Shown here: one piece after another, positions 4,264 to 61,267 of the stretch | How the letters are laid out: each line of letters starts with the position of its first letter | How positions within the stretch are numbered: the first letter of the stretch is position 1 | DNA from: Octopus vulgaris | Taxonomy: Eukaryota | DNA length: 64,000 nt | Reading direction: 5' to 3' | NCBI GenBank assembly: GCA_951406725.2 | Contig: OX597820.1 | Span: forward strand, 96,286,001 to 96,350,000 | The notes under the pieces: model-generated | Database searches by the model: none | What the model was told of the DNA's origin: nothing | The model's input: the letters and a program-made list of their open reading frames with translations, nothing else | Position numbers and translations under genes: made by a program

Positions 4264-4322
4264 ATTCAAGATCCTGGATTTCTGGCTTTGCCTCAGTAAA
4301 ACTCTGCCTTCTTCAGTTGAAT
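4264..4322 (-). ncRNA. Type I hammerhead ribozyme
   Basis: Minus strand: AUUCAA-CUGAAGA-A GGC...GCC A-GAAA-UCC A GGA-U-C-UUGAAU; 6-bp stem I, near-palindromic stem III, AUC triplet; within a short insert (~4127-4350) between (TA)n tracts. Confidence 0.75.
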
Positions 4323-4494: not shown

Positions 4495-4589
<95 letters not shown>

Positions 4590-4811
4590 TCAATATAGGG
4601 TGGCAAAAAAATTTTGTAGAATTCTTTTGCCACCAGCGGCCTAGTAGGAAAAAATTAAAATAGTCATAGACCATTTTTAAGTTTAACATCAACAATAAAG
4701 GAACGGCCATAATAGGCCATTCACCCACTAGAAATAACAGCCAAAGCTTCAACCGCAAATAAAAGTTAATTCAGTAAACCAGGAGAAAATTTAAAAAACA
4801 TTTACCCTGTA

Positions 4812-4918
4812 ATTTCTTATACGATATACCGTTTCATCTGCTGATTAATGGTAAACTAACCTGATTAAATTAAATCAAGCCAATCTTCCACAGGCCCTCA
4901 GATTCGTCAGTAAGAAAT
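4812..4918 (-). ncRNA. Type I hammerhead ribozyme, copy 1 of array
   Basis: AUUUCUUA-CUGACGA-AUCUG...CAGAU-GAAA-CGGU AU AUCG-U-A-UAAGAAAU; 8-bp stem I, stem II extended by a GU-rich hairpin, GUA triplet (cut between 4820 and 4819). Confidence 0.85.
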
Positions 4919-5301
4919 AGCCCAAGACGGAACAGATATTTTCACGAGGCATTTCCGACGTTGCCAAGTTTATATCTGACCTAAAATTTTCAAATCGTCG
5001 CACTCGCGCCAAATTTATCGGCAGCAAATAAATATAAGCCGTCGATTCCATTACGGAATTAGCCAGAAAATTCATAATTAATCAATATAGGGTGGCAAAA
5101 AAATTTTGTAGAATTCTTTGCCACCAGCGGCCTAGTAGGAAAAAATTAAAATAGTCATAGACCATTTTTAAGTTTAACATCAACAATAAAGGAACGGCCA
5201 TAATAGGCCATTCACCCACTAGAAATAACAGCCAAAGCTTCAACCGCAAATAAAAGTTAATTCAGTAAACCAGGAGAAAATTTAAAAACATTTACCCTGT
5301 A

Positions 5302-5408
5302 ATTTCTTATACGATATACCGTTTCATCTGCTGATTAATGGTAAACTAACCTGATTAAATTAAATCAAGCCAATCTTCCACAGGCCCTCAGATTCGTCAG
5401 TAAGAAAT
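5302..5408 (-). ncRNA. Type I hammerhead ribozyme, copy 2 of array
   Basis: Same sequence as 4812-4918, offset 490 bp. Confidence 0.85.
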
Positions 5409-5824
5409 AGCCCAAGACGGAACAGATATTTTCACGAGGCATTTCCGACGTTGCCAAGTTTATATCTGACCTAAAATTTTCAAATCGTCGCACTCGCGCC
5501 AAATTTATCGGCAGCAAATAAATATAAGCCGTCGATTCCATTACGGAATTAGCCAGAAAATTCATAATTAATCAATATAGGGTGGCAAAAAAATTTTGTA
5601 GAATTCTTTTGCCACCAGCGGCCTAGTAGGAAAAAATTAAAATAGTCATAGACCATTTTTAAGTTTAACATCAACAATAAAGGAACGGCCATAATAGGCC
5701 ATTCACCCACTAGAAATAACAGCCAAAGCTTCAACCGCAAATAAAAGTTAATTCAGTAAACCAGGAGAAAATTTAAAAAACATTTACCCTGTATATATAT
5801 ATATATAGAAGAAAGAAGAAGAAG

Positions 5825-6570: not shown

Positions 6571-6973
6571 GAAATAGAAAGATGAATAATCTTGTTGCAG
6601 ATTAATCAAAAGTTTAACCGATACCTTGGTAGCAAAAATCACAGCAGAAGACAGCACGGTTGGAGGTACAACCATATGGTGTTGCAACCGTGCATTGGTG
6701 CGGATAATTGAATTTTAATATTATTAGTGAATTGAAGAAAACAGTTTGGCCATGGGCTCTTAGGAGCCTCGTTCGATTTGTTTTGCTCCGCCTCTGTTCT
6801 GTTTTTGTTTTTTCCAACGGATTTCCTATTTCTTCCTGAAGAGAAAGACACAATATGGTCCCCTTATTCAATCGGAATTTGGTAAATTGTGCCTTTCGAA
6901 ACACGTGTAGAATGCAATAAAACGATTTCTGTTCAATCTTCGTTCAACTCCATTTCTTCAATTCACTATTAAA

Positions 6974-6976
<3 letters not shown>
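6569..6976. mobile_element. TA-inserted non-coding element (family P1) with partial internal inversion; Penelope pLTR-like
   Basis: Near-identical to parts of 35711-36383; left part is inverted relative to the right, with a short overlapping IR (~6719-6741 vs ~6953-6976); (TA)n on both sides. Confidence 0.75.
6827..6919 (+). ncRNA. Type I hammerhead ribozyme (family P1)
   Basis: UUC-CUGAAGA-GAAAGACACAAU...AUUGUGCCUUUC-GAAA-CACGUG-U-A-GAA; 12-bp stem II with one mismatch, palindromic ACACGUGU stem III, GUA; stem I only 3 bp plus distal UAUU/AAUA. Confidence 0.7.
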
Positions 6977-7040
<64 letters not shown>

Positions 7041-10976: not shown

Positions 10977-11492
10977 AAGATCCAGAGACCGAAGTATAGG
11001 AAGAAAGTTATATTTAAGTAATCCGTAGTAAATATAAAAAACAACTTTCAAGGACAATAGTGGTTTATCGAGACGGAAGATTATGGATCTTTTCGTATCG
11101 AAAAAAAGTTTTTTTTTTATATTTTACGGTGAGTGACCAGGCTTCCCGAGTGTGCGAATAAGAATACAAGACTTATGGAATGGTCTAGATAAGATCTGGG
11201 CTACATGTTTCATAACGAATGGAACATCAGCAGTGGTAAATATCCAAGCGAGAAGATACATGTTAACTCATGGAAGATTCGGTCGGAATCTTCCATGTAC
11301 TAACATGTATTTCCTGGCGACAATGTAAACTTTCATTTTATCAAGATATCCTTCGCCTGGGTGTAGCTGCGGTATACACCTCCCTTGGATATTTACCACT
11401 TCTGTGGCTCCGCTCGCTATGAAATATATATAGCCCGGATCTTATATATACTCCATTCCTTAACTCTTCTATCTATCTATCTATATATATAT

Positions 11493-15033: not shown

Positions 15034-16078
15034 AATGCGAATTGTTTTGATTTGCTACTTTAACTCCTCCGAAACTATCCAACAGAACTTCATGAATCTT
15101 GACACGTGTGGGACTTATGCCCATGCGGTCACTTACACACTTGGAATTTTTAAAAAATCGATTTTCAATCAACATCGATTTTTCAAAATCGTAAAATTTC
15201 AGCTTATTTTGCACTAGCCATCGTGATATCAATTTTACGAAAAATGCAGAAATTTGACGAGAAATGTGTCATGGGTATAAACAGATAGCTTCTTAACGGT
15301 AATCTATTTAGTATTTGCAAATTCTTTATTTCAATGAGAATTGTTTTCATTTGCTAAAACTTATTATTTCAATTCCTTGTTTCAATTCCCCAGCGTTTCA
15401 AGCTTTAAATAGATAAGTGCATTTTATTTCTCAAACACAATTTAGGCATTTTGCGAACTAGTCGTTGTGACATCAATTTAATGAAATCTGCCCCAAAGCG
15501 TAAAATTTCGCCATTTTACGTACATGCACAAAATTGACGACGACGCGGGTTTGCTGCCAGACTCCGTTCAGTTTTTCATCAAATTGGTCCTACCTATTAA
15601 TAAAGATTTCAATTTTTTTTTTAAATGGCAAAATTTAGCGAAAAATATTTCATAGCTATCTTATTAACGGTAATTTATATATAAATTTTCTAATTCTGCA
15701 TTTCAATGCGAATTGTTTTCATTTGCTAAAACTTATTATTTCTATTCGTTGTTTTCATTCTCCAGCGTTTCAGATTCTGATTACGTAAGAGCATTTTATT
15801 TCTCAAGCTAAATTTAGGCATTTTGCGCACTAGCCGTCGGGACTTCAATTTGACGAAATCTGCCCCAAAGCGTAAAACTTCGCCATTTTACGCACATGCA
15901 CAAAAATGACGACAACACAAGATCGCTACCAGATTCTGCTCATTTTTCCGTCAAATTGTTCGTACCCATTAATATAGATTTTTAATTTTTAAAAAATGTC
16001 GAAATTTGACGAAAAATGTTTCATGGCTATCAATAGACATCTTATTAACGGTAATTTATTCCCGGGTACCTCAGTTTG
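15034..16078 (+). repeat. Internally repeated element (about 372-bp tandem subunits), possibly a non-autonomous Helitron
   Basis: AATG(C/A)GAATTGTTTT.ATTTGCTA at 15034, 15333 and 15705; ends CCCGGGTACCTCAG, resembling a decayed Helitron 3' end. Confidence 0.6.
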
Positions 16079-16166: not shown

Positions 16167-17394
<1,228 letters not shown>

Positions 17395-20184: not shown

Positions 20185-21715
20185 ATGCTAATACTGTTCC
20201 CAAGGACCCAAAGATAATTGGCACTATCTTCATTTACTTCATTTTCCACAGCTGGGCCATTTCGTACTTACGAGGGTTATATCTATCTATCTTTTCGCCT
20301 TCTTCCTCCACTATTCGTGGGTCAAAGGGACATGCAACATCAACTATATAGCATATGTGGTGCACCTTGTCCACCACTACTAAGTTCGGTCTGTTGCGCT
20401 CTAGCACCTGATCTGTTTGGAATGAGAACTCCCAGAGGATTTTGCTAGTCCCCGACTCCACCGCACTCGGCGGTTTATGCTCATGTCACGTCTGCCTCTT
20501 TCTTGCCCCCACTTTCCGTACAGTTTCCAATGGAGCGTTTTCGCTACCTGGTTGTATCGCCACAACTTGTAATGGTTTAAGGCAGGTCTATAGCATTCGT
20601 TCGTGATATGGGAAATAGTTACATCCACTCTATTGCAGATGCGGCACAGTGGAGACACTCGCTTATTCCTAAGGTTGACCCTGCAGTTCGTGGCCAAAGC
20701 TTAGTATTGTGCTTCCAGTATAGTGCTCTCGGCTTCCTTTTTCAAGTTCCTTTCAGCAGCCAATCCTACCTAATTTTTCCAGGGAATTCTGTTGTGGATA
20801 AATGGAACTGATTGTGTAGTCTTTTGTTGTGTAATTCTTCTTCACGTCCATTTTGTACTTCTTCCTTTGTTTTCACTTCTTTCTCTGTTCTCAATACTTC
20901 CTCGTTCCTGACTGTCACTAGCAAGGCTTCCTTACTTTGGGCTCGGTATTTCATTAAGCTCGTGCTTGATACGCACGCAGTCTTCCATACTTATCAGTCC
21001 CCTTCCTCCACTTGCTCTCTTCATGTATAGGCGATTAGTGTCTGCTCGTGGATGGTGGGCTCCATACATCGTTAGGAGCTTTCTTGACTTCCTGTCCATC
21101 TCCTTTATCTCCTCTTCTGTCCACTTCAGGATTCCAGCGCCATACCGAACTACTGTGACTGCCCGCGAGTTTATTGCCGAAATTATGTTTCTGGCATTCA
21201 GCTTTGGAACCAATATTTTTCCAACTCGCCGCAGGTACTGTCATTTTGTCTTTTCCTTCATGTCGTGGTGTTTGATCCCATCTGACTCAAGTATTCTCAG
21301 GTATTTATAGCTGAATTGAAGTTGCATTGCCTTCATAATTTCACCACTTCGCAACCCTATACCTTCTGTCCTGGCAAGCTTTCCTCGTCTCATCAGTATC
21401 GTAGCAAATTTTGAGAATCCAAACTCCATCTTAATATCATCGGAGAAAATCCGCACAAACTGGACAAGGCTGTTCAGTGGTCCTCGGGGTTTTTTTGAAT
21501 AGCTTCAAGCTGTCCATGAATAGCAAGTGGTTTAGTTTTTCCCTTACCTCTTCCAGATCATACCCCAACTTTGTTTTCTGTATTTCACTCAAGGGAGATC
21601 ATTCCCAGCACGAATATCAGTGGGGACACATTGTCCCTTTGGAAGATTCTCTCTTGATTTTCACCTCTCCTAGTACTGCTGTCAATTCTGTTCTCCAGCA
21701 TTTCATGCTATTCCA
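20185..21715 (-). mobile_element. R4/Dong-type non-LTR retrotransposon, 5'-truncated and degenerate (RT C-terminus, CCHC, REL)
   Basis: KLNHLLFMDSLKL (RT), KMEFGFSK, RLYMKRASGGRGL, CRICNRVDVTISHITNEC (CCHC), KILWEFSFQTD..RPNLVVVD; abuts (TAA)n. Confidence 0.9.
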
Positions 21716-21731
21716 TTAATATTATTATTAA

Positions 21732-21771
<40 letters not shown>

Positions 21772-21778
21772 GTTACTA

Positions 21779-21852
<74 letters not shown>

Positions 21853-21855
<3 letters not shown>

Positions 21856-22309
21856 TAGTTTTATTTTTATAGCGTGCTTTCACTTCACTACCGAGCGCAG
21901 CTCTGTGTGCCTTGGGTATGTGCTGTGATTTGTTGTGATGCTCTGATGGTTATTGTATGGAAAGTGTTCTGCGTAGGATGTGTGCAGTGCCTAGTAGTGC
22001 AATTTTCTGTATGTTATATGTGTTTGTAAGTCCTGGTGTTTTTGTTATGTATTTGTCTGAATATTTTTTTATCATGCCTAATGCACCTACTATGATAGGA
22101 ATTGTTTCTGTTTTCAGGTTCCACATTCTAGTTACCTCTATTTCCAGGTCTTTGTATTTTGAGAGTTTCTCCATTTCTTTTAGAGACACGTTGTCATCTG
22201 CCGGTATTGATACATCAATTAGAAAGCATTTTTTTTCTTCATGATCTCTGACAACTATATCTGGTCTGTTGGCCTTAATTTCTCTATCTGTGTGAGAAAT
22301 TAAGGCCAA
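21853..22309 (-). mobile_element. R4/Dong-type LINE 3' fragment with uninterrupted REL-domain C-terminus
   Basis: ORF 21950-22309: NRPDIVVRD...LIDVSIP...EKLSKYKDL...PIIVGALG; flanked by (TAA)n on both sides. Confidence 0.9.
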
Positions 22310-28120: not shown

Positions 28121-28450
28121 AAAACAATTGCAGCGTGGAAGGTGTTTGTAAGCCATTTAAGAAACACACAAAAGCCGTTCGATTCACTTCAACATTTAAG
28201 TTTAATTTGTCAAAATATTTTCGTCGCTTTAAGACCTGCATCTCAGATGCAGCACGGATTTTTGTCAGTGAACAGGTTGCGGCCTTAAAGCGACGAAAAT
28301 ATTTTGACAAATTAAACTTAAATGTTGAAGTGAATCGAACGGCTTTTGTGTGTTTCTTCAATGGCTTACAAACACCTTCCACGCTGTAATTATTTTCGTT
28401 TCAGCACACGATCTCAGATCAAATCACTTGCTATGCAAGTACATCTCCCT
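28121..28450. mobile_element. Fold-back element with about 111-bp inverted arms, in TA/TG microsatellite
   Basis: 28126-28236 is the reverse complement of 28281-28391 (mirror ORFs 28020-28382 and 28135-28389). Confidence 0.85.
28261..28311 (+). ncRNA. Hammerhead-like motif with G3-C8 swapped core
   Basis: UUUGUCA-GUGAACA-G GUUGC...GCGAC-GAAA-A UA U-U-U-UGACAAA; 7-bp stem I, 5-bp stem II, palindromic AAUAUU stem III; triplet UUU is non-optimal. Confidence 0.55.
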
Positions 28451-28464
28451 ATACATATATATAT

Positions 28465-35300: not shown

Positions 35301-35636
35301 CAGCTATTTTTGTATTCATAGGAAAATAAATTCACATATGCACACAATTCATACACGCTCGTGTTATGTTGATCACTAAGAAACGGCTAGTACCATTCTC
35401 TGTGATGTCTTCCGTTGATTCTGTCACGTACTATTTCTATACTGAATCACAATGTTCTGAAGCAGATATTGTAAAAGTTGAAACAGCTGAATAATGATGT
35501 GAAGTAATGCATTACGGTTAAGGAGAGAAATGAAACACGAATTATACGTTATGTTGAAATGTGTCATAGATATAGTTTTATGTTTTTCTAGCACGGACCA
35601 AGACACTTATCTCAACGAAATTATGAAACAGTTTAC

Positions 35637-35712
<76 letters not shown>

Positions 35713-35915
35713 GAAATAGAAAGATGAATAATCTTGTTGCAGATTAATCAAAAGTTTAACCGATACCTTGGTAGCAAAAATCACAGCAGAAGACAGCACG
35801 GTTGGAGGTACAACCATATGGTGTTGCAACCGTGCGTTGGTGCGGATAATTGAATTTTAATATTATTAGTGAATTGAAGAAATGGAGTTGAACGAAGATT
35901 GAACAGAAATCGTTT

Positions 35916-36008
35916 TATTGCATTCTACACGTGTTTCGAAAGGCACAATTTACCATATTCTGATTGAATAAGGAGACCATATTGTGTCTTTCTCTTCAGG
36001 AAGAAATA
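35916..36008 (-). ncRNA. Type I hammerhead ribozyme (family P1, left arm)
   Basis: Same fold as 6827-6919. Confidence 0.7.
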
Positions 36009-36085
36009 GGAATTCCTTAGGAGCCTCCTCGTTCGATTTGTTTTGCTGCGCCTCTGTTCTGTTTTTGTTCTGCCAACGGAATTCC

Positions 36086-36178
36086 TATTTCTTCCTGAAG
36101 AGAAAGACACAATATGGTCTCCTTATTCAATCGGAATTTGGTAAATTGTGGCTTTCGAAACACGTGTAGAATGCAATA
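36086..36178 (+). ncRNA. Type I hammerhead ribozyme (family P1, right arm)
   Basis: CUGAAGA at 36095, GAAA-CACGUG-UA at 36157-36168. Confidence 0.7.
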
Positions 36179-36395
36179 AAAGGATTTCTGTTCAATCGTC
36201 GTTCAACTCCATTTCTTCAATTCATTAATAATATTAAAATTCAATTATCCGCACCAACGCACGGTTGCAACACCATATGGTTGTACCTCCAACCGTGCTT
36301 TCTTCTGCTGTGATTTTTGCTACCAAGGTATCGGTTAAACTTTTGATTAATCTGCAACAAGATTATTCATCTTTCTATTTCACCAAACATATATA

Positions 36396-36461
<66 letters not shown>

Positions 36462-36476
36462 GTAAACTGTTTCATA

Positions 36477-36585
<109 letters not shown>

Positions 36586-38464: not shown

Positions 38465-39358
38465 TTAGGTTGTTCAGAAAATACTGTCCGATTTTTCGAA
38501 AACAGTTTTTAAAATTCGATTTAAGATGTTATTTTTGTAGAGTCTTAGACGAAATTTTACATACTTAATCGGTGTGTACTCCTTAATAAAATTCTATTGA
38601 TTGCTTTCAGAATATAATTTTGAATCGTAGAAATACTTAATTTCGAATAAGAAAAAAAAGAAATACGTTTACTTTTTTTGCATGAATTCAATCTTGGGAA
38701 TAATGCTTCCCAAAACAGCCGCCGATGTCAATAGAGCAAAGGGTGAAGTGTCCGCTAGTTATTGGACGGTACTACGGTGGTTTGAGAGATTTCATAGTGG
38801 GGTTGAGAGCCTTGAAGATCAAGAAGGTAAAGGACGTCTATCCACCATTGATGATCGGCATTTGAAAACAATACAGCTTTCTGGAACCTAACCAGAGCAT
38901 TACATCAGAAGTTTACAGTAATCAGCTGGAACAAATGCATGTAGATTTGAGCAATATGAGACCTGCAGTTGTCAATTGACATGAGCCAATTCTGCTCCAC
39001 GACAACGCTCGACCGCCGTTTCTAGGATGACACCCGCAGAAGCTCATGGACTTGGGATACGAAATTTTAACACATCCTCCATATTCCCCCGATCTTTCAC
39101 CCACCAACAACCACTTTTACAAGCATCTGGGCACTTTTTAAGGCAAAAAAACTTCCGTTCCAAAACCGAGGTCGAAACTGAATTGAAAGATTTCTTGACA
39201 TCAAATCCTTTGGATTTTTATCGAAGAGGCATAAATGACCTTGTTAAGCGATGTGAGAGACTCATAACTCTTCGAAGATCATATTTTGAATAGTTAAGCC
39301 TATGTATAAGATCAATTTTTCAAGAATATAGGCGGCCATTATTTTCCGAATAACCTAG
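38465..39358 (+). mobile_element. Mariner element, internally deleted
   Basis: Imperfect TIRs TTAGGTTGTTCAGAAAATA / TATTTTCCGAATAACCTAG; RWFERFHSG, LLHDNARP and HPPYSPDLSP motifs. Confidence 0.85.
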
Positions 39359-40024
39359 CAGTTTTATTTTTGTTTTCATCTTTTGTTTTCATTTCGTAAG
39401 ATTATATCGAAAGCCATTATGCCTTGGATATTTTGTCTTTAGCTGTTAGCTATATTTTTCCTTCTTTAACAAATCCACCTGCATTTATGAAAATGTTTGT
39501 TGTTTTGCTGAGCATATTTCTTGTTTAAAAGTCTACTATTCTTTAGTTGTTGACTTTGCATAGAAATATGACGTCATACTTCCTGCCTCTTTTTACATGA
39601 TATAAACATTTTTGGGTCAGTTGAACTGGTCATACTACCTGTGACCGTCAAATAACCTTATTAAATAAAAAGAACAAATATCATCAAGAGCAAAATATCG
39701 AAATAAGGCAAGAAATAGAATGATGAGAATCTGATAGAAGCAACGAACTAAGCAAAAATAATCAAAAATATAGAATATTAGAAAACAGAATTGCGAACAA
39801 AATGGACTACAAAATCCAAATAAGACGCCTAAATAAAAAAGAAAGAAGTAGTAGGAATTTTACTCGCCTGCTGATCGTTGTGGCTAGAAACTTGTGTAGT
39901 TAGGAAAAAATTTAATTAGTAGTGTATATGTGAATATATGTGTAAAATGAGCCGTATTTAATATAAAATGGATACATTACACACACAGAAGCACATGCAC
40001 ACACACACACACACATACACAAGC

Positions 40025-40118
<94 letters not shown>

Positions 40119-40121
40119 TAT

Positions 40122-40784
40122 AAAATAAATATAAGAGAGTGGTCACTATATGGCTCACTCTAGCACCAGTTAATCCAAAAGGTTTCAACCACAAAAATGT
40201 GCATTGCCTTCTTTTATCCTTGAAACTTTGCAAGTGAAGGTGTTTAACAACAATGAAAGCATTCACTGCTCTTATATCAATCATGTTGTAGAATATAAAC
40301 ACAGGCCATCTTCGAGTCATTCTTTTGCAAGTGTATGTTCTTTCTAATTGTTCCAACTAAAGTAGTTTTCTTGCTAAGCAGCTTTCAAGCCAATCCTAGA
40401 CTTGTAAGGAAATTATCACAAGTTATACTGTGTCCAGTATTTTCAAGTTCTTTTACTATGTCTTCAACAACTCTTGAACATTGATTTGTCTTTCCCCCTT
40501 TTACTGGGGATGTTTCCAGTGTAGATTTGCATTTTCCTGGCATAACATGTTTCACTGTCGTATATTGCCCAAATTTTAATTCCATATTTCCCTAGTTTTG
40601 AAGGAACCCCGAATGAGCAGCGCCTTCTGAGCCATATAGTGACCACTCTCTTATATTTATTTTGTAAAAATATTATAATATATTATAAAATATTATAATA
40701 ATCCAGGTTTCTCGGAGCACTAGGCCACTTGGTGTAGAATAGATATACTATTAAATTAGTATCTAATTCTCTCACCCTTATTAA

Positions 40785-40790
<6 letters not shown>
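40122..40790. mobile_element. TA-inserted fold-back element enclosing an inverted 430-bp piggyBac segment
   Basis: 36-bp IR at 40122-40157 / 40628-40663; 40201-40630 is the reverse complement of 41297-41726. Confidence 0.8.
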
Positions 40791-40817
<27 letters not shown>

Positions 40818-40820
<3 letters not shown>

Positions 40821-40930
40821 GGGTTGGAAAAATAATGGAAAATCCTAGCATCATAACATCATAATATTGAAATTATCTATAAAAACGTCAAAAGCTTGTT
40901 TATTTTTATGTATTTTATTTACTATTATGC
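40818..40930 (+). mobile_element. Left end of the same Tc1 family as 16167
   Basis: TA-CAGGGGTTGGAAAAATAATGGAAA..CCTAGCATCAT...TCAAAAGCTTGTTTAT matches 16167-16275. Confidence 0.85.
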
Positions 40931-42207
40931 GCCATGGACAAATGTTGAAGATAGGGTTGATTAAAAAGATAAATGGAAGGAAATTCATCACTCTGAACTA
41001 AAGAAATTTATTGGACTGATTATTCTTATAGGTGTTTATAAATCTAACCATGAAAATGTCACACAGTTACGAAGTCAAGAAGATGGCCACCTAATACTCA
41101 ACAAAATTATGAGCCGGGGAAGATTTCAACAGATTTTACAAGATTTTGCCTTTTGATGATGCTAGTGCAAGAAGAAAAAAGAGAAGTGATGATGAATTGG
41201 AACTCATAAGAGAAGTATTTGAAATGTGGAATCAGAATTTGCAAGATGGATATGTTCCAAGTTGGTGCATGACAATTGATGAACAATAAGTTTTATTCAG
41301 AAGGCGCTGCTCATTCGGGGTTCCTTCAAAACTAGGGAAATATGGAATTAAAATTTGGGCAATATACGACAGTGAAACATGTTATGCCAGGAAAATGCAA
41401 ATCTACACTGGAAACATCCCCAGTAAAAGGGGGAAAGACAAATCAATGTTCAAGAGTTGTTGAAGACATAGTAAAAGAACTTGAAAATACTGGACACAGT
41501 ATAACTTGTGATAATTTCCTTACAAGTCTAGGATTGGCTTGAAAGCTGCTTAGCAAGAAAACTACTTTAGTTGGAACAATTAGAAAGAACATACACTTGC
41601 AAAAGAATGACTCGAAGATGGCCTGTGTTTATATTCTACAACATGATTGATATAAGAGCAGTGAATGCTTTCATTGTTGTTAAACACCTTCACTTGCAAA
41701 GTTTCAAGGATAAAAGAAGGCAATGCCTAATTCAGTTAGGAAAGGAACTTGCTGAAGTTAATGCTAAAGAAGAACATGACAAACAATCTTCTAGTTCCGC
41801 TAACATTTCTCAACCAAACAAGAAAAGAAGACGATCTTCAACCTCATTTGAGATTCCTCAGCCAAAGAAAAAAGGAAGATGTTCTTTGTGCGACCCCAAA
41901 AAAGACAGGAAGACTCGTACTACATGTAAGAATTGTAATATCCATGTTTGCCAAGAACAATCCAATGTCGTCAGCATTCCCTGCCATGAGAGCTGTAATT
42001 CAGTATTTTTATAATTTTTTAAATTTATGATATATTCTGTAAGCTGTACTTTTTTGTTAAAATTTGTTAGAAACAATAATTCTTCAGTCACCTGATAGCT
42101 AAGAAATAGCTAGTTTGAATAAAATTTAATTAAAAGAAAAATATTGGGTTCATTGGACCCAGTTGGTACTTAGTGACATACATTTTCTCTGGTAGACCAA
42201 GGGTTAA
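40931..42207 (+). mobile_element. piggyBac transposon remnant: right end and degenerate transposase
   Basis: ELKKFIGLIIL, MTIDEQ*, PSKLGKYGIKIW, ITCDNF, RRWP, C-terminal Cys-rich KGRCSLC...CKNC..HVC; ends GGG-TTAA at 42201-42207. Confidence 0.9.
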
Positions 42208-43675: not shown

Positions 43676-44600
43676 TAGGTCGTCGAGTATGAACTTTGTA
43701 GGAAAAAAAGTTTGTTAGTGTTTTATAAATACAAGGAATAGTTTTATTCATCAAAGTATGCACCCATATTGTCAATACACTTTTGCCATTTGAGCAGTAG
43801 CTTGTCCAACTCCGAACTGTAAAAGTCTGGCAATCTAGAGTCAATAAAATCTTGGAAGGCCTCTTTTACAGCATAGTCGGAATTAAATTTTTTCTATCAA
43901 AATGTTATCCAAGTGGAAGCCAGTGGGGGAAAGATCAGGTGAGTATGGTGAATGATGGAGAACTTCCAACTCCAACTGCTATAGTTTCGCCAATGTCATT
44001 TTTGCGATGTATGATCTGGCGTTGCCTTGCAATAAAACAAGAGTGGATCTGTTGACTAATCTAGGCTGTTTTGTCCAACCATTGTGCTGAATGTTTACGG
44101 TTGTTGTATTGGATTCATTTCTTATCGCATGTTACAATTCGATTTAAAAATGATTAAATTTTGTGGCGAAAAAGTCACATAATGCAAGTTTCCAAACCTT
44201 GCTGTTTCTGATTTTCATTGAGTTCATGTGGAACCCATTTATCCAAATTTTTTACTTTAACAATTTGAACTAGGTGAGTCAATATTGTTTGCTTGCTAAC
44301 ACCAAACAAAAACGATAATTCACGGGCACTTTGAGATGGATCTGACACGACATTATCCACTTTTGTTTCTGGTCGATTACGCTGTTCATTTGTGAGGTCA
44401 AAGTGACCAGAACGAAAGTTTGAAAACCAATTTGACACTGTCTGCTCTGTGATAACATTAGAAGGAAATACTCCATTAATAATCCAGGCTGTCAGTGATG
44501 CTGTATTTCCAAGAATTTCCGACTTATCCATCTCTAAACAAAAATAGCAAAAGCGATTTATAAATACTTTATAAAGCGCAAAATGAGTTAGAATAAAGAA
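43676..44600 (-). mobile_element. Mariner remnant
   Basis: KWVPHEL (ORF 44175-44531), PYSPDLSP near 43925-43948, TTAGGT terminus at 43676. Confidence 0.85.
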
Positions 44601-44644
44601 ATAGATGTGTCAGCTTTCTAACAAAAAATAAAGATTACCAAAAT

Positions 44645-46895
44645 ATAATAAGGGGAGATCATTTGAGATGAGAGGGATCCTTGGCATGAAGACATTCCTA
44701 CACATCATGTTTCCTGTGATCATTGTTGCATCCAACTCATGGAGTATGGCTGTTTTAACAACCAGCCTTGTTCCATTGCAGAGCCTGGGTGCATCAAGGT
44801 TTCGTAACAACATTATGAGAGCACCTGTTTTTATGATCAGAATTTGTGGTGGAAAACCTGGTGGTTGAAGTGAATTGAGGAACTCAATTGTGTAATGCGT
44901 TGCCTGTTCTTGATCAGTGACAGAGTCGATTGATCTGTATGAACATTCAGTTCCTGGAAGCTGAGACAACAAATCTAGAATCAGCTGTGCACAACACCAT
45001 TCCTTGGTGTCAGAATTGTTCTTTCACAAAGCCATTTATGACTTTGTATTTTGTGGCAATGTTTGGAAAGACCTTGCTCTTTAGTTCTTCAAGGGAGGCA
45101 ACCATATTGCCACATTAAAGGTGGTGCAGGCTTCTGGATCCTGTGGAAGTTTTCCTTTTCAAATGTCAAGTAACTTCTTTGAGAACTCTGCAGCTAATTG
45201 GTCACTGTGAATGTGAACTCTCATGCTAATTGTCAGAGTAAGCTGCTTGACATGTAGCCAGATATATGAGGACTTGATGCAAGCTCTCAGCTCATCTGCC
45301 TTTGTTCCTCTGGGAATGACAGACAGGGTTTGCCTGAAGTCACAGGCCATGAGAAGTGTGATACTACCTATGATCTTCTTATTGTTTCTGAAGTCTTGTA
45401 GTATTCTTTTGAGAGCTTCAACATTTGCCTTATGAAACATTGCTGCCTCATCCCAGACAATGAGTTTGGCATTTGTAAAGAGCTTTGCTAATGCTGTATT
45501 CTTTGATATGTTGCATAATGAGATTAATTTTGGATCAGGTTCAGAGGTAGTTTGATTGTTGAATAGACTGCTCTTCCGCCTGTTAGGAGTGTGGCTGCAA
45601 TTCCAGAGGATACAACAGCTAGAGCAATCCCCTTCTGTCTCACCTTGGCAAGAAGCATGTTCATCAATAATAAAGGAGTATCTAAGAAGAAGGCCTCCAC
45701 CAGCATCACTGTCCACAGATATCAGAACTTGCCAGTATTCCTCCTTTTGATCCTATACCATAAGTGGTTCCTTCTCATTGACAATTGCTTGCAAACTCCC
45801 CATGTTGTATGATGTTTCTCTGACTAGTTCTTGTGCTAACCTGTGTTGAACATCTCTGATAGGACCTGGAAGACGAAGTTTGTTTCCACCCAGTAATCGA
45901 ACCTCGTCATCTATTAAGTTTAATGCTTCACTGAAGATGTCATCATTGAATGTGACATCACCCTCATGCTGATATTGAATTCTTTGAAGAATGTCTTCAC
46001 AAAGCCCCACCGTGTACCAGAGTTGTTTCGGATTTGACAATCCACAGTTCACCAGCATTATGGATAAGATGGCAAGCCTGGCGAAATGTGTTGCCAACCG
46101 TACGTAAGGCAATGAAGGATGTGGGTCTCTTGACAAGGTGTAACAGAAGCCTTAGATAGTAGTACTCTGAGTAGTTGGGATGGACAACATAGACTCTGCC
46201 AATTGTGCCTGATTTCTTGATTCCAAGTGGGTATTCTAAGTGCACGTCGCTTCCATTCTTTTTTGGTCCAAGTGTAGTATTGTGGAACTTCATTGTATAG
46301 CAATCATGCAGCAATTTCATCATCCTGACAGAGCTTGAAGAATGCTGTAAGTGTGGTATACTTTGGAGCTTCCATTTGTTGTTGCACTATGTCCTGGGTG
46401 AAGTAAACCTTTTCTCCATTCTCCAAGTGTTCCACGTGGGGATATCTCTCATGAATGGAGAACTTGAAGATACTCCAACATGCTTCACTACTGCTGATAT
46501 ACCTCCCCATTTGGAAGGTCTTAATCTCTTCATTGTTCCGTGAATCCCGGACTGCAAAGACTGTCACGTCAGATCCCTTGTTGACATATTTGCACACATA
46601 CTTAATGGATTTCACTGAGTTACAGAACTCAAAATTGATGTGTGCCTTGGATATTTTGGAGATGAGCGGACAGTATGATACTAGCCACCTGTTGTCAAGT
46701 GACCTTTCAATATGAGCTGACGTCTTGATAGTGGTTTCAAACCCACCCTCACCTGGTTTTTGTCTTCTGTTGAAGGGATAGCTATCATGTCCAGTTTGGG
46801 TATCTCAAAGAAATTTCTTTGAAAAGCCTTTTGTACACTTTCTACCCTGCATGCATGGAGCATGTAGGTTGATGTTCCCACATGGACCATTTACC
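44645..46895 (-). mobile_element. Helitron Rep-helicase (PIF1-type) pseudogene
   Basis: KSIKYVCKYVNKGSD, GRYISSSEA, YYLRLLL..KRPTSF, SSGIAATLL.GGR, LIVWDEA, DFRQTL, MLLRNL...LCNGTRL, PRIPL; many frameshifts; Walker A GKT appears deleted. Confidence 0.92.
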
Positions 46896-52372: not shown

Positions 52373-52736
52373 ATACGTTAATTTCGAACAGTGAGAATGA
52401 GTGCTCAATACTGTATTCATCGATAAATATTCTTTACTCGTGAGGTAACCAGAATACTATATGTTTCATGTTGGAAGAGACATCTTTCAACAATTATGTA
52501 TTCAAGTCTGTACCTTTGGACGTTGGTGTTTGTCTCCATCTTGGATTAAATGCAAAACAAATCAATAAAGTCACGTGAAATCATGTGGTGTCATGCGAGA
52601 CACCACAGGATTTCACATGACTTTATGTATACATACATATGCATATATGTATGGATACCATATTTATGTGTATATATGTGTGTGTGAGTGTGCGTGTGTG
52701 CGTGTGTGTGCGTGCGTGTGTGTACATGTGTATTTG

Positions 52737-56602: not shown

Positions 56603-57887
56603 TTGGGTTGGCAACTAAGTTCCCACCGTATTTTGAAATTTTGGAATTTATTGCGTTTTTAAATTTTGGAATTTATTTTTTTCGATAATTACATTTTTGA
56701 ATCATTTCTGAATCTATTTTGTTTGTTTTTTGTTTTGTTTTTTCTAGTTAATTTTAGTTAACTTTTGTTTATATTCAGACCATTAAAATGGAATGTCAAG
56801 TTATGACAAACAAGCCTTTTCGATACCTCCTTCTGTTTGCTTTTAATCAAGGCCCGAAAAGCTGCTCGCGACATTTGTGCTGTGTATGGAGAGGGTGTCA
56901 TAGCTGAAAGAACTACTCGTGATTGGTATGCCAAGTTCAAAAGTGGAAATTTTGACCTCAAAGACGTACCTCATTTTGGCCGTCCAGTTGAGTTCGATGA
57001 AGAGCGATTTAACCAACTTTTGCACAAAAATTCTCATCAAACGACAAGCGAACTGGCTGAGAAAATGGAATGCTCCCACACTACTATAGAGAAGCATCTT
57101 CACTCGAAGGGAAAGGTTCAGAAGTATGGAGCATGGGTTCAGCATGCTTTAAGTGACAACAAATTTCAATGAGCCACAATCTCCGCTGGTTTGCTTGCTC
57201 GTCACCGCTCAATTCATGGACACAAGCAACGATTTCTTTACCTAATCGTTACTGGTGACAAAAAATTGTGCCTGTAAATCAATATGAAGAAGCGTAAGGA
57301 ATGGCTTAGCCCCGGTAAACAAGTGACATCGCACGCGAAATAAGATCTTCATCCGTGTAAAACGATGTTGTACCAATGGTGGGACTGAGAAGGGATTATC
57401 CATTACGTATTGCTCGAACGGAACCAAACGGTCAACACGGAACTCTATGTTCAACAGATGGAAAGACTCAACACAGCTATTCAAGAAAAAAGAATTGTCA
57501 GCATGGAGTTCTTCTGCTGCACGACAACGCCCATATATCGCCAATATGACCAAGGAAGCCATTCAAACGCATGGCTGCAAAGTCCTACCACACCCACCAT
57601 ACTCTCCTGATTTGGCACCAAGGGATTTCCATCGTTTCAATCTCTTTCAAATGCTATACGCGGAGTTTCGTTCAATATTGATGCAGAATTGAGAGCGTGG
57701 TTGGATCAATTTTTCGAGACGAAATCGGATGATTTCTACCAATGAGGTATTGAAAATCATGTTGAACTTTGGGAAGTTGTAAACAACAAGAGTGAATACA
57801 ATATTGATTAATTAGTTGTTATTTTTTGTTAAACCTTTATAAAAGGTTAAATTTAAGAAAATGGCGGTAACTTAGTTGCCAACCCAA
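56603..57887 (+). mobile_element. Full-length mariner (1285 bp), inactivated transposase
   Basis: TIRs TTGGGTTGGCAACTAAGTT / AACTTAGTTGCCAACCCAA; GAWVQHAL, IVTGD, LHDNA and HPPYSPDLAPRD motifs; stops and frameshifts. Confidence 0.92.
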
Positions 57888-57980: not shown

Positions 57981-58440
57981 CTGATTGTATACGTGCGTCT
58001 ACAAGTATATATAATACAATTGACAAATTAATACCTTAAGACATTTGAAAATAACACGTCATACCTTTGCTGACGGTAGTAAAAGAAGACTCCTAAATGT
58101 CATCAATATTTTTAATGCTTCAGAACATCATCAACATCCGAGCTACTTTGCTTATAAACATCGAAACACATTTACGATTTCTTTAAACAACCAATGAGGA
58201 AAATATCTCGTCATCTAATATAACGCTTAGATTTGACAGCCAAAAACACAATTTGTATCCGGAGGTGGAATGTATCATTCACAAATTTATTTCAAAACGG
58301 GGGTTAAATATGTTTGCAAGTATCAACATATATTAATATGTATATGCATGTATACACGAGTCTATTTGCATTTATATATACATATATGATATATGAGTAG
58401 AAAAAAGAAATATATATATACATACATATATATATATATG

Positions 58441-58701
58441 TTGAAATAGAAAGATGAATTCTCTTGTTACAGATTATTCAAAAGTTTAACCGATACTTGG
58501 GTAGCAAAAATCACAGCAGAAAAAAGCACGGTTGGAGATAAGACCATTTGGTGTTGCAACCGTGTGTTGGTACGGATAATTGAAGTTTAATATTATTAGT
58601 GAATGGAAGAAATGGAGTTGAACGGAGATTGTACAGAATTCCTTTTATATATAAAAGGAATTCTGTACAATCTTCGTTCAACTCCATTTCTTCCATTCAC
58701 T

Positions 58702-58709
<8 letters not shown>
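58441..58709. mobile_element. Diverged family P1 copy ending in a spacerless 120-bp palindrome
   Basis: Homologous to 35711-35915; 58590-58709 is palindromic with one mismatch, centre TATATA. Confidence 0.85.
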
Positions 58710-61089: not shown

Positions 61090-61267
61090 AAGTCCCTTTA
61101 CTCGCCGCGAATTAATCATGGCTACTGAATGACCGACGTATATTCCATCCTTTAGAGCTACGGTGTAGGGGAGATAATTCTTATTAACATTTAAGAGTAC
61201 TTTTCTGCATGGAGTATATGTTGGTCATTCAGTAGCCATGATTAATTCGTGGCGAGTAATGGGACTT
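61090..61267. mobile_element. MITE-like inverted repeat (59-bp arms)
   Basis: 61090-61148 vs 61209-61267, about 5 mismatches. Confidence 0.7.

Follow-up and report, generated by a model that had tools for sequence, protein, structure and literature searches.

An inverted 430-bp copy of a neighbouring piggyBac fossil between two head-to-head, probably Penelope-like, element ends in Octopus vulgaris

Organization of the locus

We analysed 64,000 nucleotides of the Octopus vulgaris genome (assembly GCA_951406725.2, contig OX597820.1, positions 96,286,001 to 96,350,000), hereafter the window; all coordinates are positions within it. At about 40 kb, a (TA)n run is interrupted by two short element ends in opposite orientation, with an inverted copy of the nearby piggyBac fossil between them (Table 1).

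Table 1. Coordinates of the features at the 40-kb locus and of related elements elsewhere in the window
Feature	Position	Strand	Basis
Partial tandem, ~2.4 x 490 bp, between (TA)n runs	4586..5782	-	basis for identifying the element (distant relative)
Hammerhead-bearing family, three copies	6575-6978, 35711-36383, 58440-58706		palindromic; truncation points differ
Head-to-head hammerhead-bearing pair with inverted flank copy	35618..36480	.	arms 299/306
Left half of (TA)n target, preceded by (CA)n run	40081..40108	.	sequence; 11 nt from left arm
A/T-only junction filler, ~10 nt, slippage-like	40109..40118	.	sequence; origin inferred
Left inverted 5'-truncated PLE-type 3' end, 82 nt	40119..40200	-	homology to hammerhead tandem
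Templated inverted copy of piggyBac fossil 41297-41726	40201..40630	-	430/430; same lesions
Microhomology at putative priming junction, 3 nt	40628..40630	.	chance ~0.07
Right 5'-truncated PLE-type 3' end, 162 nt	40628..40789	+	homology to hammerhead tandem; hairpin
Right half of (TA)n target	40790..40816	.	sequence
Probable Tc1/mariner 5' remnant, TA-CAGGGG start	40817..40930	+	sequence; weak alignment
piggyBac fossil lacking its 5' end, terminating GGG-TTAA; donor 41297-41726	40932..42207	+	Pfam, protein matches

The fossil was recognized from its translations. Four of five translated stretches matched Pfam DDE_Tnp_1_7 in the order of the profile, with E values from 2e-4 to 0.02, all four below the curated cut-off. 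The best two of 13 protein matches were named piggyBac-derived proteins of Octopus vulgaris and O. sinensis (75-76% identity). Its only preserved end is the 3' GGG-TTAA at 42201-42207; near the fossil we found neither a matching 5' end nor a TIR pair with a TTAA duplication. Because only the 3' end survives, the fossil is immobile. A Tc1-like 5' remnant (40817-40932) adjoins it, and the 5' part of the fossil is absent from the window. The segment 40817-40930 is probably of Tc1/mariner origin; its alignment with the Tc1 element at 16.9-17.3 kb is weak (score 27 only).

The inverted copy and its source

The segment at 40201-40630 is the reverse complement of 41297-41726 at 430 of 430 bases, exactly as the original prediction had it, and the two arms are separated by 666 nt. 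This inverted copy is real in the assembly. In a self-BLAST of the window, taken after masking as the unmasked run was dominated by microsatellites, it was the sole long inverted pair at 100% identity among 58 self-matches. The donor stretch carries several lesions: relative to the two Octopus proteins, it has a two-codon gap and a frame change at ~41420-41439. Further along lie a stop at 41540-41542 and, near 41590, a frame change accompanied by the loss of about 75-80 codons. The copy repeats every one of these lesions, and the tblastn translations of both copies are identical, which bears out the claim that the frameshifts of the fossil had been carried over.

Because piggyBac sequence is intact and collinear beyond both edges of 41297-41726, this segment is the source, and copying in the reverse direction, from 40201-40630, is ruled out. 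A distant piggyBac donor is disfavoured, as the lesions are missing from the two named Octopus relatives and the fossil is immobile; a recently duplicated sibling elsewhere may nevertheless have served as donor.

The copy consists of 427 new nucleotides and 3 nt (TGA) shared with the inner end of the 36-bp inverted pair described below; the overlap proposed at 40628-40630 is thus exactly 3 nt long. A microhomology of this length is weak evidence for template switching, and 12 TCA sites nearer than the one used were all passed over. With zero differences in 430 bp, the copying would have occurred less than about 1 million years ago, assuming the rate implied by PMC13282606 (distance 0.09 = 25 My) and arms that were not homogenised. 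The 36 identical arm bases cannot date the element against this filler (p 0.43 at 2.3% divergence).

The flanking element

The copy is enclosed by a 36-bp inverted pair (40122-40157 and 40628-40663), which matches at 38 of 39 positions when extended to 40119 and 40666. A 32-mer of the arm was found at just two sites in the window at up to 3 mismatches (0 in 100 shuffles). The pair therefore lies where it had been placed, but its arms are not element termini, as homology runs on to 40789. The further claim, of an element bounded by these arms and inserted at TA, did not hold: the target-site duplication at 40122/40663 amounts to 0 nt (TAT on the left, GTA on the right), so that the hallmark of a TIR transposon, fold-back element, MITE or Pack-TIR is absent. 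A "TATA" duplication arises only with the ends shifted 11-12 nt inward, and it is uninformative because a self-complementary TATA inside any inverted repeat yields such a match automatically.

Two stretches had been overlooked. Between the left arm and the copy lie 43 nt (40158-40200) with no 12-mer match anywhere else in the window, and ~125 nt past the right arm also belong to the flanking element. We accordingly place the element boundaries at 40109-40789. The left end (40119-40200) terminates at an internal AT-rich site, and the right one is made up of the 36-nt arm and the ~125-nt extension, with a hairpin closed by GGUG/CACC and 13 unpaired nucleotides. Judged from the sequence, two 5'-truncated 3' ends lie head to head in a (TA)n run, and the 36-bp arms are the stretch in which they overlap.

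This arrangement resembles that described for Penelope-like elements (PLEs), a group with listed Octopus families: their 5'-truncated copies may be inverted, tails occur on one side, and insertion targets include (TA)n (PMC8557442). As in (TA)n-targeting, hammerhead-bearing clades such as Hydra, and in Naiad, a 5'-truncated copy stands beside an inverted 5'-truncated copy, there is a one-sided extension (~125 nt, on the right side alone), TA runs flank the insertion at 40081-40108 and 40790-40816, and the relative consists of partial tandems with type-I hammerheads (PMC8557442).

Homology to a hammerhead-bearing tandem

Of eight element ends tried, one, the 3' end of the tandem at 4586-5782, gave collinear alignments with the two element pieces; the remaining seven showed no similarity to either piece. 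The left piece matched tandem positions 4766-4682 at 57 of 78 aligned bases, a score reached by 7 of 2000 shuffles and by none of the 484 other tiles. The right piece matched 4723-4586 at 99 of 135 aligned bases, a score that none of 2000 shuffles attained but that was reached by 7 of the 484 tiles, these being AT-rich. Its non-overlapping tail alone (48/59) was equalled by 4 of 2000 shuffles and beat all 484 tiles, and the 43-nt piece alone was not significant (325/2000 shuffles). The terminal hairpin (GGUG/CACC), the 13 unpaired bases and the adjoining (TA)n are common to element and tandem (z -3.3 and -4.5). By these alignments, both element pieces are distantly homologous to the tandem.

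Every full unit of the tandem contains a type-I hammerhead, which folds as expected (z -3.8) and gave an Rfam Hammerhead_3 match of E 0.023 and 23.9 bits, under the gathering score of 48.5. Between units, the only differences are one-base indels in homopolymers (3 gaps over 691 columns), possibly read errors. The tandem also has a strong terminal hairpin and is retrozyme/pLTR-like in appearance.

A hammerhead descriptor, with its layout later compared with a table in PMC8557442, gave 9 hits in the window, against 0-2 in each of 20 shuffles. None of the nine falls in the element at 40109-40789, whose left copy is cut ~145 nt downstream of the position of the relative's hammerhead core (4910 versus 4766). 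A half-hammerhead reading of GAAA in the left copy was rejected, since stem III is unclosed and the homologous tandem site is not its ribozyme. The end motif CCCT[AT] before (TA)n, which was picked post hoc, was present at 4 of 8 TA edges downstream of hammerheads and at 2 of 130 others, one of which is the element itself.

No RT or GIY-YIG motif was found in a six-frame scan of the window, and the element ends are non-coding, just 82 and 162 nt long. An Rfam scan of the whole window gave none at the gathering score among the 150 of 311 matches listed, which were driven by microsatellites or hairpins. Exact arm motifs had no hits in the available supplements of PMC8557442, consensus files included, where line breaks and divergence could mask matches, in the available supplement of PMC13282606, which contains no repeat library, or in GTDB contigs, which are prokaryotic and hence a weak comparison. 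Searches for further copies with translated arms yielded 0 of 3 candidates; one match at 40% identity (E 2e-4) was taken as chance. Within the window, the only relative seen is the distant one at 4586-5782. Below the level of a protein-based assignment, the element works like, and probably derives from, a PLE.

Other inverted pairs in the window

Head-to-head pairs at (TA)n runs are abundant in the window. In five of ten inverted pairs examined (at 6.6, 24, 28, 58 and 40 kb), (TA)n begins at most 11 nt from one arm, and on the other side the sequence runs on for 59-154 nt past the arm, an asymmetric spacing found in 0.5% of random intervals; a symmetric pair and a borderline one (194 and 10 nt) account for two of the other five, and the last three lack this placement. 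The 6.6-kb pair has the topology of the 40-kb locus minus the filler, with a 26-nt overlap, a tail on one side and additional 5' sequence on the opposite side. The 6.6- and 58-kb copies share an internal AT-rich 3' end ~150 nt short of the full end.

Local inverted flank copies were present in 2 of 9 elements scanned in the window. In the pair at 35618-36480, the right side is an inverted copy of the left host flank, comprising 22 nt of unique sequence and a TA run of about 70 nt. As the arms of this pair are 299/306 identical, it is not a read fold-back. The arms of neighbouring pairs have diverged by 2-4%, compared with 0 for the 430-bp filler.

More hammerhead-bearing 3' ends enter (TA)n at 4316 (-), 20102 (-), 23650 (+) and 24202 (-, half site), each belonging to a separate family. 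The hammerhead at 28261-28310 (+), inside the head-to-head pair 28121-28455, has a perfect 7-bp stem I, and its core C3 and G8 are swapped (G3, C8), a double change reported to restore cleavage in part (PMC11167929). More diverged palindromes with no clear (TA)n tie lie at 11164-11472, 52565-52626, 61090-61267 and 15148-15188.

Proposed mechanism

What the sequence shows is the duplication and its direction, the shared lesions, the junctions, the tandem homology of both pieces and the (TA)n flanks. The best explanation, which we hold with moderate confidence, is a twin-primed insertion of the PLE type combined with cis snap-back copying of the piggyBac fossil. A Penelope-like retroelement of the hammerhead/pseudo-LTR type would have cut both strands of the (TA)n run, and both broken 3' ends would have primed reverse transcription on the element RNA, the right cDNA (162 nt) starting at the full 3' end and the left one (82 nt) at an internal AT-rich start. 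Because two cDNAs of the same polarity relative to the RNA cannot anneal together, the right cDNA would loop back. Its 3' end (TCA) may have folded onto its own resected bottom strand at the TGA of 41297-41299, ~510 nt into the flank, where a DNA polymerase would have extended it by 427 nt along the fossil. The extended end would then be released and joined to the left cDNA, and a 430-bp inverted duplication would be left, as a single event, with an element end on either side.

The order of the pieces is consistent with this scheme. Read from the right (TA)n, the bottom strand carries the antisense element end, TCA, plus-strand piggyBac 41300-41726, the sense element and the left (TA)n; both its orientation and the side on which the microhomology falls agree with what fold-back of the right-hand bottom strand predicts. 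The filler also spans the inversion point, as expected if it was made during joining of the two 5' ends, and its capture during insertion is plausible. The original prediction had invoked template switching onto local DNA by a fold-back element with inverted arms. The local origin and a microhomology-guided switch survive, favoured by the intact collinear source, the shared lesions and the fit of orientation and microhomology side to fold-back, whereas the fold-back DNA element does not.

Published work provides precedents for the individual steps. A lizard PLE protein cuts and extends both strands in vitro and uses two RNA initiation sites (PMC11167929), and an alga has de novo PLE insertions with a median length of 128 bp (PMC9977147). 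Against the model, the ~125-nt extension exceeds the 30-40 nt described for PLE tails. The PLE enzyme, twin priming, resection, snap-back, timing at insertion and the identity of the polymerase are what the model would add to the observed structure.

Alternative explanations

The main rival to snap-back at insertion is later repair, which we regard as somewhat unlikely. Here the element pair would have been inserted first, and a later break at its hairpin-prone centre would have been repaired by cis fold-back onto the piggyBac fossil, independently of transposition. There is precedent in animal single-copy Pack-TIRs, of which 160 of 281 lie within 15 kb of their donor (median microhomology 2 bp) and in which 91 of 97 testable captures were later than the insertion (PMC8277862). 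Later repair would also fit the undiverged filler, given the 2-4% divergence between the arms of neighbouring pairs, and clipping of a 3' flap would account for a right copy without the 43 nt. It needs, however, a break targeted to the centre, as the filler lies exactly across the inversion point, and the original arms were probably short. The 0/36 differences between the element arms are uninformative on this question.

A jump to an RNA template carries a low probability. The reverse transcriptase making the left cDNA would move to a nascent sense piggyBac transcript, copy 427 nt and pair via TGA/TCA. The orientation is compatible, the filler being antisense to the piggyBac sense strand, and both "extra template" junctions of R2 (PMC11371274) and multi-RNA insertions of L1 (PMC11702581) have been described. 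Yet there is neither a poly(A) nor a splice signature at 41726, the fossil lacks its 5' end, the donor distance of 0.5 kb better fits a cis DNA template, and the 35.6-kb case copies its immediate flank.

An artefact of library or assembly, namely a fold-back read, an amplification chimera or polishing that homogenised the arms, is unlikely, and we give it a slim probability. In its favour are the 430/430 identity and the homopolymer indels of the 490-bp tandem units, which hint at residual read errors elsewhere. Such an artefact would nonetheless require two switches plus a return to the forward strand, and 43 nt that are absent elsewhere in the window yet collinear with a family relative. Moreover, the junctions fall at the 5' ends of two element copies, the arms of other pairs in the window are diverged, and the window contains no N.

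Replication template switching with no retrotransposition appears highly improbable. A fork would stall at (TA)n by one old PLE end and switch three times, so that the left "copy" and the filler would both be made from local DNA and the original 43 nt deleted. That every switch is local and that each duplicated piece matches its partner at 100% would suit this reading, at the cost of three switches and one deletion; the asymmetric head-to-head form recurs in four other insertions, and the 6.6- and 58-kb insertions have a common internal end point.

The originally proposed TIR DNA element (fold-back, MITE or Pack-TIR) with TIRs of 24-36 bp and a captured piece is largely refuted at this locus and retains the smallest probability: despite the perfect 36-bp inverted pair and the well-documented local capture with short microhomology (PMC8277862), the arm ends lack a target duplication, element homology carries on for 125 nt past the right arm and covers 43 nt on the inner side of the left one, and the tandem identified as relative bears hammerheads.

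Comparison with known systems

Each component of the preferred model, twin-primed insertion with snap-back, is known. In the literature searched, outside subscription journals, we found neither their combination, a 427-nt template ~0.5 kb away at a PLE junction, nor any report of local host-DNA capture by PLEs. Unlike the PLEs described in PMC8557442, the element copy contains neither coding sequence nor a hammerhead, host DNA lies between the two copies, and the extension is ~125 nt rather than 30-40 nt. Non-LTR retrozymes offer a parallel in the relative at 4586-5782, a hammerhead tandem of ~490-bp units, and one preprint derives hammerhead tandems of this kind from PLE pLTRs (bioRxiv 10.64898/2026.07.22.740005); the 40-kb locus differs in being an inverted pair with no tandem.

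With snap-back and templated insertions the locus shares an inverted local copy, an intact donor and a 3-nt microhomology at the priming junction (p ~0.07). At R2 snap-back 5' junctions, the cDNA 3' end likewise primes on itself or on nearby target DNA and leaves antisense junction sequence, but that system is engineered, in cells, with one cDNA, whereas the octopus locus is natural, with two cDNAs and a ~0.5-kb template (PMC11371274). Templated insertions and twin priming of L1 also duplicate nearby genomic DNA (bioRxiv 10.1101/2024.08.27.596794; PMC11702581). The 22 somatic L1 cases typically span <250 bp and lie no more than 15 bp from the site (bioRxiv 10.1101/2024.08.27.596794), compared with 427 nt copied from ~510 nt away in octopus.

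Yeast fold-back insertions at double-strand breaks follow a similar course, in which a resected end folds on microhomology and is extended, displaced and joined. These are mostly 5-34 bp with a 41-nt loop, and local-template insertions in yeast range from 10 to over 150 bp (PMC11724301); the octopus insertion is about tenfold longer than the fold-back insertions and lies at a retroelement junction. Gap-filled single-copy Pack-TIRs are similar in being one-off cis captures within a few kb with ~2-bp microhomology, but their host element is a TIR DNA transposon with a TSD (PMC8277862), a feature that the octopus locus lacks.

Double-stranded RNA and possible significance

The suggestion that such a duplication forms a dsRNA-forming repeat was upheld in silico. 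A transcript of 40109-41730 is predicted to form the complete stem whichever strand is transcribed, with 430-431 pairs and ~-920 to -930 kcal/mol, and the 430-bp arms would thus form double-stranded RNA if transcribed. Octopus has an exceptionally high fraction of loci capable of long near-perfect dsRNA (PMC5625713), and inverted repeats of Drosophila Penelope give siRNAs (PMC3681739).

A broader proposal is that twin-primed PLE cDNAs are routinely joined by cis snap-back reaching 0.5-1 kb, which would make PLEs a systematic source of local inverted host duplications in octopus genomes. We consider this doubtful. PLEs make up 6.8% of the O. vulgaris genome (PMC13282606 supplement). If the proposal is true, long and perfect hairpin RNAs from PLE fillers would feed the A-to-I editing that is exceptionally strong in octopus, and the fillers would preserve a trace of how PLE integration proceeds through resection and joining, a step still to be defined. 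What follows reverse transcription in PLEs is unvalidated (PMC11167929), and how PLEs come by their tandem and inverted arrangements is described as an open question (PMC8557442). When the donor of a filler is known, so are the strand, the distance and the junction; under the twin-priming and snap-back model, single-stranded template here would have extended for about 0.94 kb or more from the break. By itself, the locus is a duplication of junk into junk, with no functional sign.

Further remnants in the window

The window holds further degraded elements. Broken frames at 20401-22309 (-), presumably of a Dong/R4-like non-LTR element with a restriction-like endonuclease end, adjoin a (TAA)n run; they gave no Pfam match in the one stretch tried. 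Broken helicase/Rep-like frames at 44610-46804 (-) are, by their motifs, assumed to be Helitron-like, and the segments at 16339-16935, 38480-39360 and 56807-57692 are taken to be Tc1/mariner transposase remnants. A further Tc1/mariner transposase remnant, at 44175-44609, matched HTH_48 over 44304-44606.
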